A DNA stretch of 64,000 bases from an uncultured bacterium. GTDB lineage: Bacteria; Omnitrophota; Omnitrophia; Omnitrophales; Abzuiibacteriaceae. A program made the translations under genes and the position numbers. The DNA is taken from assembly GCA_964387845.1 (NCBI GenBank), contig CAYLXA010000005.1, forward strand, positions 96,001 to 160,000. Reading direction: 5' to 3'. Positions 27,461 through 31,392 of the stretch are shown in pieces (the stretch's first letter is position 1; the number at the start of each line of letters is the position of its first letter). The notes under the pieces were generated by a model. It was not told where the DNA came from. It did no database searches and worked only from the letters and a program-made list of their open reading frames with translations.

Positions 27461-27488
27461 TTGACAAATTTTTAAATTTAAATATTAT
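27461..27488 (+). promoter_or_regulatory. Sigma-A type promoter of groEL1
   Basis: TTGACA at 27461-27466 and TATTAT at 27483-27488, with a 16 nt spacer. Confidence 0.6.
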
Positions 27489-27497
27489 ACCTTCACG

Positions 27498-27524
27498 TTA
27501 GCACTCAACCCAAATGAGTGCTAA
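27498..27524 (+). promoter_or_regulatory. CIRCE operator (HrcA binding site)
   Basis: A perfect consensus, TTAGCACTC-aacccaaat-GAGTGCTAA. Confidence 0.9.
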
Positions 27525-27610
27525 GTTGATTTTCAACTCCGGATTAAACTCCAGTTTGAATTATCGAGTAGGGAACGTTTCACTATTTTTAATTTGAGGA
27601 GGAAGTAAAC

Positions 27611-29251
27611 ATGGCAAAGCAAATCGCATTTGACGAAGAGGCACGCCGTTCCATTCAGCGCGGTGTTGACCAACTCGCCAACGCAGTAAAAGTTACTCTC
27701 GGCCCGAAAGGCCGCAATGTGGTCATTGAAAAGAAATTCGGTTCTCCGACAATCACCAAAGACGGCGTGAGCGTCGCGAAAGAAATTGAACTCGAAGATC
27801 CATACGAGAATATGGGCGCGCAGATGGTGAAAGAAGTCGCGTCAAAGACTTCTGACATCGCAGGGGATGGAACAACAACCGCCACAGTTCTTGCGCAGGC
27901 GATTTACCGCGAAGGTTTGAAAAACGTCACGGCAGGAGCCAATCCGATGGCCCTCAAGCGCGGCATCGAAAAAGCGGTTGAAGCGTGCGTCGCGGAACTC
28001 AGCAAGTTTGCCAAAATCATCAAGGACAAAAAAGAAATCGCACAGGTCGCCACGATCGCGGCAAATTCCGATCATGAAATCGGCAACCTGATTGCCGAAG
28101 CAATGGAAAAAGTCGGCAAAGACGGTGTGATCACAGTGGAAGAAGCCAAGTCCACCAACACCACACTCGACGTCGTCGAAGGTATGCAGTTTGATCAAGG
28201 CTATTTGTCGCCTTACTTCGTCACAGACACCGAGCGAATGGAAGCTGTCCTCGAAGATCCCTACATATTAATCAACGAAAAGAAAATCTCCTCCATGAAA
28301 GACCTTCTGCCCCTTCTTGAATCGATTGCCAAGAGCGGAAAACCGCTTTTGATCATCGCCGAAGAAGTCGATGGCGAAGCGCTCGCGACCTTGGTCGTGA
28401 ATAAAATCCGCGGCACGCTCCATGTGGCAGCGGTGAAGGCCCCCGGATACGGTGATCGCCGCAAAGCGATGCTGGAAGACATTGCCATTTTGACCGGCGG
28501 ACGCGCAATCACAGAAGATCTTGGCATTAAGCTCGAGAATGTGACCTTGAAAGATCTCGGCCGCGCCAAGCACGTCACGATCGATAAAGAAAACACCACG
28601 ATCGTTGAAGGTGCCGGCAAGAACGCCGACATCAACGGCCGCATCTCGCAGATCAAGCGCCAGATCGAGGAAACGGATTCCGATTATGACCGTGAAAAGC
28701 TGCAAGAACGCCTCGCGAAATTAGCGGGCGGTGTTGCGGTGATTAACGTCGGTGCCGCAACCGAAACCGAAATGAAAGAAAAGAAAGCACGCGTCGAAGA
28801 CGCGCTGCACGCAACCCGCGCAGCCGTCGAAGAAGGCATCGTTCCCGGAGGCGGCGTTGCGCTGCTCCGCTGCATTCCGGCTTTAGAGTCTCTTAAGGCC
28901 AAGGGCGATGAGAAAGTCGGCGTTTCTATTATCCGCCGCGCTCTCGAAGAGCCGCTCCGGCAGCTTGCAACCAATTCCGGCAACGAAGGTTCCGTAATTG
29001 TTCAGCGCGTTCAGTCCGAAAAAACAAACATTGGTTTCAATGCTGAGACCGGTGAGTTCATCGATATGATCGATGCCGGTATCATTGATCCTAAGAAAGT
29101 AACGCGCAGTGCGCTTGAAAACGCAGCGAGCGTTTCTGGATTATTGCTCACGACCGAAGCCATCGTTTCGGATATTCCTCAAGAAGAAGCAGCTCCGGCA
29201 ATGCCGGGAGGAATGCCGGGCGGCATGGGCGGTATGGGCGGAATGATGTAA
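27611..29251 (+). CDS. groEL: Chaperonin GroEL, copy 1 (with GGM tail)
   Basis: Canonical Cpn60 sequence with the C-terminal '[16 protein letters not shown]'. Confidence 0.95.
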
Positions 29252-29264
29252 TCATTAATGTAGT

Positions 29265-29292
29265 AAGGGCGAGGCATGCCTCGCCCTTACAA
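29265..29292 (+). terminator. Perfect GC palindrome between groEL1 and groES. Terminator or attenuator-like, with no T-tract.
   Basis: 'gtaagggcgaggcatgcctcgcccttac'. Confidence 0.35.
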
Positions 29293-29330
29293 ACGAAATC
29301 ATAATCAATCAATTACAGAGGAGCGTTACC

Positions 29331-29621
29331 ATGAAGATAAAACCATTAGGCGATAAAATTCTCGTTGAATTATTGGAAGCCGAAGAGAAAACAAAGGGCG
29401 GAATCATTCTTCCCGATTCGGCAAAAGAAGAAAAGAGCGAAGGCAAAGTCATTTCGGTCGGTCCCGGAAAAGTCCTCGAAAGCGGAAAAGTTCAGCCGCT
29501 CGAGATCAAGAAGGGCGACAAAGTGATTTTCGGCAAATACACCGGCGATGAGTTTGTGATCGACGGCCGCAAGCACAAAATTTTGCGCGAAAGCGAAGTT
29601 TTAGCGGTTTTTGAAGATTAA
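29331..29621 (+). CDS. groES: Co-chaperonin GroES
   Basis: 'MKIKPLGDKILV...GGIILPDSAKEK'. Confidence 0.95.
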   Translation: MKIKPLGDKILVELLEAEEKTKGGIILPDSAKEEKSEGKVISVGPGKVLESGKVQPLEIKKGDKVIFGKYTGDEFVIDGRKHKILRESEVLAVFED

Positions 29622-29629
29622 CCTTCATA

Positions 29630-29700
29630 AATTCAAAATATAAATATCAAAATTCAAAACATCGAACTTTTGATATTTGAAATTTGATATTTGAATTTAA
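29630..29700. repeat. AT-rich palindromic element in the groES-groEL2 spacer
   Basis: 'ttcaaaatataaatatcaaaattcaaaaca' and its inverted partner 'ttttgatatttgaaatttgatatttgaa'. The 27-mer recurs at 44163-44192. Confidence 0.55.
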
Positions 29701-29715
29701 ACTTTGAGGTGTGAT

Positions 29716-31350
29716 ATGCCCGCAAAAGAATTAACTTATTCAGAGGAAGTACGCGCCAAGATTAAAAAAGGCGTCGATATCCTCGCCAAGACCGTCAGTG
29801 TCACCTTGGGGCCGCGCGGCCGCAATGTGGTGCTTGACCGCAAGTTCGGTTCTCCCTTAATCACCAAAGACGGCGTCACCGTCGCGAAAGAAATTGACCT
29901 TGAGGATCCGTATGAAAATATGGGTGCTCAGATGGTCCGCGAAGTGGCTGAGAAAACATCAGATGAAGCCGGTGACGGAACCACCACCGCGACGGTTCTC
30001 GCGCAAGCGATCGTCTCGGAAGGTGTCAAGAATGTCACAGCCGGCGCCAATCCGATGGCCCTTAAGCGCGGAATCGATAAAGCCGCGGCGGCCGTCATTG
30101 AATCCATCAAGAAATTAGCGTCTCCGATTAAAGGCAAAGAAGAAATCAAGGCCATCGCTACGATCAGTGCCAACAACGACAGCGTGATCGGCCAGCTTTT
30201 GTCGGATGCGATGGAAAAAGTCGGCAAAGACGGCGTCATCACGGTCGAAGAATCCAGCACCACCAAGACGGAGCTCGAAGTCGTCGAAGGTATGCAGTTT
30301 GACCGCGGTTACATTTCGCCTTATTTCATCACCGACGCGGACCGGATGGAAGTCGTCCTCAAGGATCCCTTGATTCTCATTTACGAAAAGAAGATTTCTT
30401 CCGTAAAAGAAGTCGCCCCGCTCCTCGAGCAGGTAGTCGGCATTGGAGCGCCGCTTCTATTAATCTGCGAAGAAGTCGAAGGCGAAGCGCTTGCCGTTCT
30501 CGTCGTGAATAAAATCCGCGGAACGTTCCAGGCAGCAGCCATCAAGGCGCCCGGATTCGGCGACCGCAGGAAAGCCATGCTCGAAGACATCGCGATTTTA
30601 ACGGGCGGCAAATTCATTTCCGAAGACATCGGTGTGAAGCTCGAAAATGTGGATCTTTCGATGCTCGGAAAAGCCAAGCGTGTTGTGATCGATAAAGACA
30701 ACACCACGATCATTGACGGCGCCGGTAAAAAAGCGGCCGTGAAAGAGCGTTGTGAACTTATTAAGAAACAAATCGATAAATCAGATTCCAGCTACGACAA
30801 AGAAAAACTCCAGGAACGCCTCGCGAAGCTTTCAGGCGGTGTGGCGTTGATTAAAGTCGGTGCTACGACTGAAACCGAAATGAAAGAGAAAAAAGCGCGC
30901 GTGGAAGATGCGTTTCATGCCACAAAAGCATCCGTCGAAGAAGGTGTGGTCGCGGGAGGCGGTGTGGCGCTCGTTCGTTCATTGAAAGCGCTTGATTCTC
31001 TGAAGCTGGAAGGCGACGAGAAGGTGGGTGCCGAAATCATCCGCCGCGCGATCCAAGAACCGCTCCGTAAGATCGCGTCCAACGCGGGTTTCGATGCGTC
31101 TGTCGTGATCGGCAAGGTTCTGGAAGAGAAGGGCAACTTCGGCTTTAACGCTTATTCAGGCGAATACGGCGACTTAGTGGAGCAGGGAATTATTGATCCT
31201 GCAAAAGTGGTCCGCAAAGCGCTCGAGAATGCGTCAAGCATCGCGGGTTTGATTCTCACCACCGAAACCGGCATCGTCGAAAAGCCGAAAGACAAGGACG
31301 AAGAAAAGTCGAAGAAGAAAAATTCTTCACACGCTGGGCATTCTCATTAA
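29716..31350 (+). CDS. groEL: Chaperonin GroEL, copy 2 (with His-rich tail)
   Basis: A full Cpn60 paralogue. Its C-terminus is '[18 protein letters not shown]' instead of GGM repeats. Start taken at 'MPAKELTY'. Confidence 0.9.
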
Positions 31351-31359
31351 GTTTGATCA

Positions 31360-31392
31360 AGGGACAGTCCCATTTGGGACTGTCCCTTTTTA
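31360..31392 (+). terminator. Rho-independent terminator of groEL2
   Basis: Stem 'agggacagtccca/tgggactgtccct' followed by TTTTT. Confidence 0.8.

Follow-up and report, generated by a model that had tools for sequence, protein, structure and literature searches.

A groEL-groES-groEL gene order in Omnitrophota, likely a three-gene chaperonin operon

The groE locus, its conservation and its origin

The DNA examined here (hereafter the window) is a stretch of 64,000 nucleotides (nt) from an uncultured bacterium of the Omnitrophota family Abzuiibacteriaceae (assembly GCA_964387845.1, contig CAYLXA010000005.1, positions 96,001 to 160,000 of the forward strand). Its chaperonin locus consists of a single groES gene flanked by two groEL genes, and we consider groEL1-groES-groEL2 likely to be a three-gene operon that is conserved across a large part of the Omnitrophota. 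A preliminary description, made from the letters of the sequence, had placed groES between two full-length groEL paralogues, behind a canonical promoter and a perfect CIRCE element (controlling inverted repeat of chaperone expression), and had reported a GC palindrome without a T tract in the first spacer and an AT-rich palindromic repeat in the second. All of these elements are present at the positions it gave, and the features of the locus are as follows (window positions, with the strand in parentheses):

27461-27488 (+), sigma-70-like promoter, TTGACA-16-TATTAT, matching 11 of 12 consensus positions
27498-27524 (+), CIRCE operator, TTAGCACTC-N9-GAGTGCTAA, 0 mismatches, 113 nt upstream of the groEL1 start
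27611-29251 (+), groEL1, 546 amino acids (aa), Gly-Met-rich (GGM) tail; slowly evolving, housekeeping-type copy
29263-29290 (+), GC palindrome in the groEL1-groES spacer, perfect 14+14 nt, without a T tract
29331-29621 (+), groES, 96 aa; passes the NCBIfam GroES models
29628-29705 (+), AT-rich imperfect palindrome of ~7-nt repeats, ending ~10 nt upstream of the groEL2 start codon
29716-31350 (+), groEL2, 544 aa, K/E-rich tail ending in SSHAGHSH; faster-evolving paralogue
31359-31392 (+), terminator-like hairpin and T run, GC-rich stem of 13-14 bp, which would close the operon
44158-44285 (+), AT-rich palindromic repeat, second copy, immediately before the guaB ribosome-binding site

The 64-kb window contains no groES or groEL beyond these three genes. 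As delimited mechanically, the groEL2 open reading frame (ORF) opens at TTG 29704; because its homologues begin with MPAKEL or similar, we place the start at ATG 29716, and the groES-groEL2 spacer is then 94 nt long, with a GC content of 0.21. The hairpin downstream of groEL2 folds at -25.6 kcal/mol (z = -6.2) and is terminator-like by eye and by folding, and was not listed by a simple consensus terminator scan.

We fetched the DNA around eleven other GroEL2-type proteins, picked to span 72-94% identity as well as the different tail types described below. With the window and a further locus from a genome scan (L002), these represent 13 lineages (the window, L002, L082, L083/84, L085/86, L087/88, L089, L090, L091, L092, L141, L142 and L143), and the underlying assemblies come independently from NCBI, JGI, ENA and Logan. 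The scan, which was made with GroEL2 against one genome per species, had its listed matches mostly in other phyla, and supplied the outgroups used below, L002 and L081. In all 13 GroEL2-clade lineages, a groEL with a GGM tail is followed by groES and then by a groEL with a charged tail, and the named close relatives of GroEL2 among the top hits are all Candidatus Omnitrophota. A database protein represented on an NCBI contig and in a Logan assembly matches the window GroEL2 exactly. Most of the loci also share a neighbourhood, with tsaE-tsaB-alr-birA-coaX upstream and guaB-guaA-dnaE downstream. The preliminary description had considered that close relatives might show the standard groES-groEL order; 13 of 13 instead keep groEL1-groES-groEL2, and an annotation with groEL upstream of groES is no error in these genomes.

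An ungapped alignment of 522 residues gives 67% identity between the two GroEL proteins of the window, and the within-genome identity of GroEL1 and GroEL2 is 65-69% in all ten genomes compared. These are not the near-identical recent duplicates that the preliminary description had considered as an alternative, and its picture of two old and diverged paralogues agrees with the Cpn60 phylogeny that it had proposed building. In a neighbour-joining (NJ) tree of ten GroEL1 and ten GroEL2 sequences plus outgroups (100 bootstraps), each copy falls into a clade of its own (100% bootstrap for GroEL2, 99% for GroEL1), and the internal branching order of the two clades is similar. GroEL1 clusters with the single-copy GroELs of other Omnitrophota and of Planctomycetota (89%), and its identity to the GroELs of other phyla is 70-78%, as against 62-67% for GroEL2. 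For the same pairs of genomes, the GroEL2 distance is a median of 1.5 times the GroEL1 distance (range 1.1-2.1). Ratios of nonsynonymous to synonymous substitution (dN/dS) are 0.03-0.05 for groEL1 and 0.05-0.08 for groEL2, which indicates strong purifying selection on both, and codon bias does not separate the genes by expression level (effective number of codons 44.1 for groEL1 vs 45.0 for groEL2). We read the pair as the outcome of one ancient duplication, or ancient acquisition, that took place before these lineages radiated, with GroEL1 as the conservative copy.

The promoter-CIRCE module is that of the ancestral groE locus, with groEL1 now in the usual place of groES. The simplest origin of the order would take two steps, a tandem duplication that gave groES-groEL-groES-groEL and then the loss of the first groES. 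Ordinary groES-groEL loci of related lineages (L031, L003 and L040) have the promoter-CIRCE module before groES. L040 (Planctomycetia) itself has the order CIRCE-groES-groEL-groES (coordinates 2465-4952), and shows that tandem-duplication intermediates exist in related phyla; the second groES there is followed by a 311-aa ORF that by eye resembles a MoxR-type AAA ATPase. L081 (Planctomycetota) has, at 2903-6620, a groEL with a long GGM tail, groES, and a groEL whose tail ends ...FKQDEDEEALEGAVR and contains no GGM, with no CIRCE. The L081 GroEL copies do not group with the Omnitrophota clades in the NJ tree, so that the groEL-groES-groEL order may have more than one origin, or the divergence of the sequences may exceed what such a tree can resolve. 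L081 and L040 also show that non-standard groE gene orders in the PVC (Planctomycetes-Verrucomicrobia-Chlamydiae) group extend beyond the Omnitrophota.

Two other accounts of the gene order have to be weighed against this history. groES would also come to lie between two groEL genes if two groESL loci or strains had been mis-assembled, or if a young tandem duplication without functional meaning had taken place; metagenome assemblies can yield chimeras, and one GroEL2 sequence in our collection with an internal duplication (P0001, 741 aa) is probably such a chimera. However, an assembly artefact is excluded by the identical order in 13 lineages from independent assemblies and pipelines, with conserved synteny, and a recent event does not agree with copies that are just 67% identical, that each belong to a well-supported clade and that are both under strong purifying selection. 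We give this explanation practically no credence, and it counts as refuted by these results. The second account concerns the source of GroEL2, which might have come by ancient horizontal transfer into an existing locus, with groEL1 later placed or groES moved. The NJ tree weighs against our duplication scenario here, since the GroEL2 clade is not sister to the Omnitrophota GroEL1 and lies on a long stem outside all sampled phyla, and L081 presents a similar order with copies apart from the Omnitrophota clades. However, long-branch attraction would place a fast-evolving paralogue in the same way, no donor lineage was identified, and the two clades have a similar branching order. Outside its own clade, moreover, GroEL2 is nearest in identity to the GroEL1 of its own genome (65-69%, vs 62-67% for other phyla). 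We regard transfer as improbable, and it would leave the reading of the present-day locus as an operon unchanged.

Protein features and C-terminal tails

Both window proteins score far above the cutoff of the GroEL equivalog model TIGR02348 (582.1 bits), with 884.8 bits for GroEL1 and 826.5 bits for GroEL2, and the best solved relatives of both are GroEL 14-mers (E = 1e-190 to 1e-226). With the models for the chlamydial variants GroEL2 and GroEL3, both proteins score 216-288 bits and do not reach the cutoff of 600.

Residues were mapped on E. coli GroEL numbering, using a reference whose letters were checked at every position used. The residues of the ATP/Mg site (T30-P33, D52, D87-T91, D398, G415-G416, N479 and D495) are identical in both window proteins and are kept in at least 117 of 119 further GroEL2-clade sequences. 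In the apical domain we checked nine hydrophobic residues that contact substrate and the GroES mobile loop. Both window proteins, like at least 117 of the 119 clade members, retain eight of them (Y199, S201, Y203, F204, L237, L259, V263 and V264). The ninth, L234, is present in the window GroEL1, which keeps all nine, and is replaced by A in the window GroEL2 and by I or V in most members of its clade. The comparison of apical residues that the preliminary description had suggested thus finds the copies the same at eight of nine positions and different at L234. At the checked positions, GroEL2 shows two clade-wide changes, L234 to I/V/A and E461 to D. In GroEL1, R197 is replaced by Q in all ten Omnitrophota sequences and F281 by Y in nine of ten, and GroEL2 retains both R197 and F281. 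In E. coli GroEL, R197 pairs with E386 in the salt bridge between subunits; among the outgroups, 9 of 19 have R at position 197. GroEL1 and GroEL2 are 65-69% identical in each of the equatorial, intermediate and apical domains, with clade-specific substitutions across all three, and this domain-wise comparison does not point to a concentration of divergence in the apical domain, which binds substrate.

The tails of the two proteins are much less alike. GroEL1 ends in a Gly-Met-rich tail, and none of 122 distinct GroEL2-clade tails is of this kind. These tails are instead charged (median K/E/D/R fraction 0.5; n = 122), and 83 of the 122 end in Y(S/A)GS(I/V)x after a Lys/Glu-rich stretch. Another 24 end in poly-K/R and two are Cys-rich (KRCKKGVCSCG). 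At least three His among the last 12 residues are found in four tails, namely those of the window, its 94% relative, P0004 and P0035; five tails have two His in the last 12 residues, and the remaining four are unclassified. The conserved Y(S/A)GS(I/V)x end is seen among P0013-P0120, L090, L142 and L143, and a few lineages have it swapped for a poly-K, Cys-rich or His-rich end. P0001, from an ENA contig of 3,086 bp, is included in the 122 tails and excluded from the residue analyses: this 741-aa "GroEL" scores above the self-hit, and the segment aligning to GroEL2 residues 141-343 occurs in it twice, so that it is probably an assembly chimera of two strains.

The window GroEL2 has three His in its last eight residues, and by eye its SSHAGHSH aligns with the SSYAGSIS of other clade members (KKSSYAGSIS). 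Because it lines up with the clade motif in this way, we interpret the His-rich end as a recent local variant of that motif rather than as a clade-defining trait. The preliminary description was right about the His-rich end and about the loss of GGM from GroEL2, and the analogy that it drew with the actinobacterial Cpn60.1 is superficial, with such ends in 4 of 122 tails. The Gly-Met tail is typical of housekeeping copies, and proteins without it still belong to the GroEL family. Bacteria with several chaperonins always keep one Gly-Met-tailed copy, which is the more constrained (PMC11978752), and the tails of the other copies are His-rich, charged or pattern-free (PMC11978752; PMC5904260). 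The groEL1-groES-groEL2 locus fits this rule, since GroEL1 keeps GGM and GroEL2 does not.

Calling GroEL2 non-canonical, the word that the preliminary description used for Cpn60.1, is too strong for a protein that keeps the ATP site, keeps the apical residues apart from L234 and scores 826.5 bits against a cutoff of 582.1. With the ATP site and eight of nine apical residues kept, GroEL2 is likely to be functional, and it is most likely a working, GroES-dependent chaperonin with an altered cavity floor and a narrower or different range of clients; its GroES dependence and its client specialisation are the parts of this picture that we infer. GroEL1, which evolves slowly and has kept the Gly-Met tail, would be the general housekeeping chaperonin. 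The two would share the single GroES, and in GroEL2 the hydrophobic Gly-Met tail has been replaced by the charged Lys/Glu-rich one.

Promoter, operator and intergenic palindromes

The CIRCE at 27498-27524 is the sole match in the 64 kb at up to three mismatches (0.01 expected by chance), and remains the sole match at up to four, so that, as the preliminary description had stated, no CIRCE precedes groES or groEL2. The hrcA-grpE-dnaK operon normally carries a CIRCE of its own; at up to four mismatches the window has no second one, and hrcA itself was not searched for. The -10 box of the window promoter ends 9 nt upstream of the CIRCE, and the relatives are similar. Each of the 12 loci that extend upstream of groEL1 has a CIRCE 103-263 nt before this gene, with 0-3 mismatches, and none is found elsewhere in these loci at up to four mismatches. 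A -35/-10 pair matching 9-11 of 12 consensus positions ends 1-10 nt before the CIRCE in 11 of the 12 (pairs were scored automatically; those of L141-L143 were read from the upstream sequence). The remaining locus is L091, for which the automatic scorer picked a weaker pair (8/12) that lies 24 nt upstream of the CIRCE.

Across the lineages, the groEL1-groES spacer ranges from 34 to 147 nt and the groES-groEL2 spacer from 1 to 172 nt. The latter is 1, 2, 9, 11 and 19 nt in five lineages, and the former is 34-50 nt in five; gaps of 1-19 and 34-50 nt therefore leave no room for a separate terminator and promoter. Downstream of groEL2, a hairpin with a T run is found in at least six relatives (L002, L082, L087, L090, L091 and L092). 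A consensus promoter scan of both window spacers gave no candidate, and candidates picked by eye in the AT-rich spacer were dropped for wrong spacing or poor -10 boxes. Because several relatives have short groES-groEL2 and groEL1-groES gaps, the simplest reading of the ancestral state is one three-gene operon under a single CIRCE promoter. In this scheme, one sigma-70-type promoter would give rise to a single mRNA that ends at the hairpin and T run after groEL2. The CIRCE just downstream of the promoter would be a putative binding site for the HrcA repressor, and groEL1, groES and groEL2 would all be heat- and stress-inducible together. The preliminary description had taken the lone CIRCE before groEL1 as a sign of differential regulation. 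This does not follow, since a CIRCE before groEL1 could serve all three genes; such an arrangement is what one operon would be expected to show, and the relatives have gaps of 1-19 and 34-50 nt.

Both spacers of the window contain strong hairpins. The GC palindrome at 29263-29290 folds at -25.6 kcal/mol (z = -5.2) and is followed by AAACGAAATC, as the preliminary description had it, without a T tract. As an intrinsic terminator it lacks a T run, and the consensus scan did not list it. The window contains no second copy, the other loci searched for it contain no exact copy of its core, and L082 and L083, closer relatives than L087, lack the palindrome. In L087, the corresponding spacer has a look-alike, GTAGGGACGAGGCATGCCTCGTCCCTAC, that differs by two changes, each of them compensated, and is followed by a T run.

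The AT-rich palindrome at 29628-29705 folds at -20.6 kcal/mol (z = -3.8) and is built of TTTGATA / TTTGAAA repeats, and the copy before guaB at 44158-44285 has a z-score of -4.8. Counted by eye, the left arms of the two window copies share ~31 of 32 nt, and the version at the same site in L082 shares ~26 of 33 nt. Of 12 relatives, 11 lack the element between groES and groEL2, and only L082 has a diverged version there, with the hairpin retained though synonymous sites are near saturation (dS about 1). No clear target-site duplication was seen by eye at the flanks of the two window copies. The wider family consists of palindromes of ~7-nt repeats (TTCAAAA, TATCAAA, TTCTAAA) that lie upstream of ribosome-binding sites or are otherwise intergenic; its members are the near-identical window copies at 44158-44285 and 29628-29705, a GC-richer look-alike at 21036-21090, and L082 5872-5980. 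A metagenome scan with the 20-mer TAAATATCAAAATTCAAAAC gave 48 hits, which are mostly chance matches in AT-rich DNA and include ~8-10 hairpins of the same kind, in gene contexts too heterogeneous for a role to be assigned. Similar AT-rich hairpins occur in the unrelated metagenome contigs L095, L131, L132 and L123.

Rfam has nothing at gathering score in the whole window, and at the locus gives only chance-level hits (E up to 5). One match to Atu_C9 (28 bits vs a gathering score of 40) overlaps the terminator and an AT-rich palindrome and is probably a structural coincidence. The AT-rich hairpin has no Rfam match to the described thermometer families (ROSE, fourU and similar). CtsR is a regulator of Firmicutes, and a CtsR-like heptad operator was rejected for the AT-rich repeats, which fit neither its consensus nor its spacing.

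Hairpins at the two spacer sites are not conserved among the relatives, which have unrelated palindromes or none. Repeats of the GTCATTGCGAG, GTCATTCTGAG or GTCATTCCCGC type are found in the groE spacers of L002, L082, L085, L087, L089 and L143, and a hairpin with a T run lies between groES and groEL2 in L083. The GTCATTGCGAG, GTCATTCTGAG and GTCATTCCCGC types recur several times per 10-14 kb locus, also in other intergenic regions, and have landed repeatedly, in different lineages, in both groE spacers; of these types, the window has only two isolated half-sites, at 24184 and 60564. We interpret both window hairpins as lineage-specific palindromic repeat insertions, of the kind known as repetitive extragenic palindromes (REP) or miniature inverted-repeat transposable elements (MITE). 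The AT-rich element is best described as a dispersed repeat, mobile or homogenised, because its copies within the genome are more alike than the copy at the same site in L082, and it is not a groEL2-specific signal, because a second copy stands before guaB. Such hairpins may at most fine-tune mRNA processing, mRNA stability or translational coupling in this sub-lineage, and intergenic hairpins here should not be taken as dedicated regulatory sites.

The alternative is that regulation is split, with CIRCE and HrcA acting on groEL1 alone, the GC hairpin stopping or attenuating transcription, and groES-groEL2 or groEL2 served by signals of their own; in one variant the AT-rich palindrome is an operator, or an RNA thermometer that masks the groEL2 ribosome-binding site. 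Several points weigh against a single transcript. Co-transcription is a deduction from gene spacing, and the window and its nearest relatives have long spacers (79-147 and 82-172 nt) that hold strong hairpins, with z-scores of -3.8 to -5.2 in the window. A strong hairpin lies between groES and groEL2 in all six lineages closest to the window, and hairpins with T runs that resemble terminators occur inside the operon in L087 (after groEL1) and L083 (after groES), so that attenuation or internal promoters may operate in the sub-lineage of the window. In addition, the minimum-free-energy fold pairs the Shine-Dalgarno GAGG of groEL2 with CCUUC just past the groES stop, and the AT-rich hairpin has persisted at the same site in L082, with compensated changes in its arms, despite a dS of about 1. 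However, the Shine-Dalgarno pairing is missing from the centroid fold and is not reproduced by the L082 version, and the AT-rich hairpin belongs to no known thermometer or leader family. Neither spacer yields a promoter-like site, and the GC hairpin has no T tract. The hairpins of the relatives belong to unrelated families and do not occur where just 1-19 nt separate the genes, and the AT-rich element has its closest counterpart (~31/32 nt of the left arm, vs ~26/33 in L082) before guaB in the same genome. Moreover, both GroELs need groES, so that a full stop after groEL1 would be costly. We therefore consider split regulation unlikely, though not negligible, and retain the reading of the locus as one operon. 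Taken as a whole, the interpretation offered in the preliminary description holds for the unusual order, the old and diverged paralogues and the loss of GGM, and fails for differential regulation and for the role of the hairpins.

Comparison with known systems and the neighbouring island

Parts of this arrangement resemble chaperonin systems described elsewhere. The Omnitrophota locus shares its promoter-CIRCE module, its Shine-Dalgarno sites and the terminator behind its last gene with the canonical groES-groEL operon, whereas its first gene after the CIRCE is a groEL. In a survey of 4,861 genomes, groES always lies upstream of groEL where there is a single copy (PMC5406781), and extra groELs have been described as belonging to groESL operons of their own or as stand-alone genes (PMC5406781; PMC5904260).

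The actinobacteria have a cpn10-cpn60.1 operon, whose Cpn60.1 has a His-rich tail and is dispensable, and a separate cpn60.2, which has the GGM tail and is essential, under HrcA/CIRCE control (PMC5904260; PMC11978752). The likenesses are two diverged GroELs of which the GGM copy evolves more slowly, a non-GGM copy directly downstream of the co-chaperonin gene with the GGM copy lacking a co-chaperonin gene of its own, and control through CIRCE (PMC5904260; PMC11978752). Unlike the actinobacterial pair, which occupies two loci each with its own CIRCE, the Omnitrophota genes occupy one locus with one CIRCE. The window GroEL2 also belongs to an Omnitrophota clade of its own (100% bootstrap, in a tree made without actinobacterial sequences), and His-rich tails are rare in that clade (4/122). 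The His-rich tail of GroEL1 in M. tuberculosis is reported to be connected with copper handling (bioRxiv 10.1101/766162).

In Myxococcus xanthus, two GroELs rely on a single GroES with coordinated expression, and stand-alone GroELs still need that GroES (PMC5406781); the paralogues have diverged in their range of clients (PMC5406781; PMC3578752). The two M. xanthus groELs, whose tails are both of GGM type, occupy different loci and have separate regulators (PMC5904260), whereas the Omnitrophota genes are contiguous with groES at the center. The chlamydial variants GroEL2 and GroEL3 are likewise extra paralogues, from a PVC lineage related to the Omnitrophota, but they are highly diverged and lie at separate loci, and the window proteins pass the ordinary GroEL model instead. 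Chloroplast Cpn60 alpha and beta are two diverged type I subunits that are made together and share co-chaperonins, and would be a possible analogy if the two GroELs mix; the bacterial paralogues studied so far, in contrast, prefer homo-oligomers (PMC5904260). The AT-rich hairpin, for its part, resembles REP/MITE palindromes in being intergenic, in having at least two window copies and in varying in presence at the same site, although its 7-nt periodic AT-rich build is unusual for classical REPs.

A literature search returned neither the term groEL-groES-groEL nor any account of Omnitrophota chaperonins, with most subscription-journal papers outside its reach. The gene order is probably new, and its component parts (multiple chaperonins, non-GGM tails, CIRCE/HrcA and palindromes) are all known. 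It is also an order that surveys would miss if they call extra groELs "stand-alone". Estimates of the share of sequenced bacterial genomes with more than one GroEL run from about one fifth (PMC5406781) to one third (PMC11978752), and how the copies divide the work and share GroES is still being studied case by case. The Omnitrophota provide a clean natural case, in which one promoter-operator, one groES and two paralogues have stayed side by side while a large part of the phylum radiated, and the pairing of a GGM-tailed with a charged-tailed copy is suited to tests of the role of the tail and of co-assembly between bacterial paralogues. Current understanding of chaperonins is not overturned, and the interest of the locus is modest unless the two GroELs co-assemble. 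That they work as one machine, in mixed rings or with one ring each, around the single GroES is a speculation to which we attach only slight probability. If true, the pair would correspond, in bacteria, to chloroplast Cpn60 alpha/beta, the charged tail of GroEL2, with the conserved Y(S/A)GS(I/V)x at its end, would alter the cavity floor or dock a partner, and the gene order would serve co-translational assembly and stoichiometry.

The region between groEL2 and guaB in the window is occupied by an island of ~13 kb (31393-44150) with a GC content of 0.33-0.45, vs about 0.5. It encodes a YhcG/DUF1016 nuclease, a HipB-like helix-turn-helix (HTH) gene with a split HipA toxin, a DUF5131 protein, a C5 cytosine methylase, a nucleotidyltransferase-HEPN pair and an addiction-module antidote. 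The gene directly after groEL2 is guaB in L089, L091 and L092, and we therefore regard this site as a variable hotspot. Three more long AT-rich palindromes are located within the island (31388-41, 32788-32913 and 34342-34498). The one at 31388-41 comes right after the groEL2 terminator and before the stop codon of the convergent yhcG; among the island palindromes, one precedes the HipB-like HTH gene and is operator-like, and one follows hipA.

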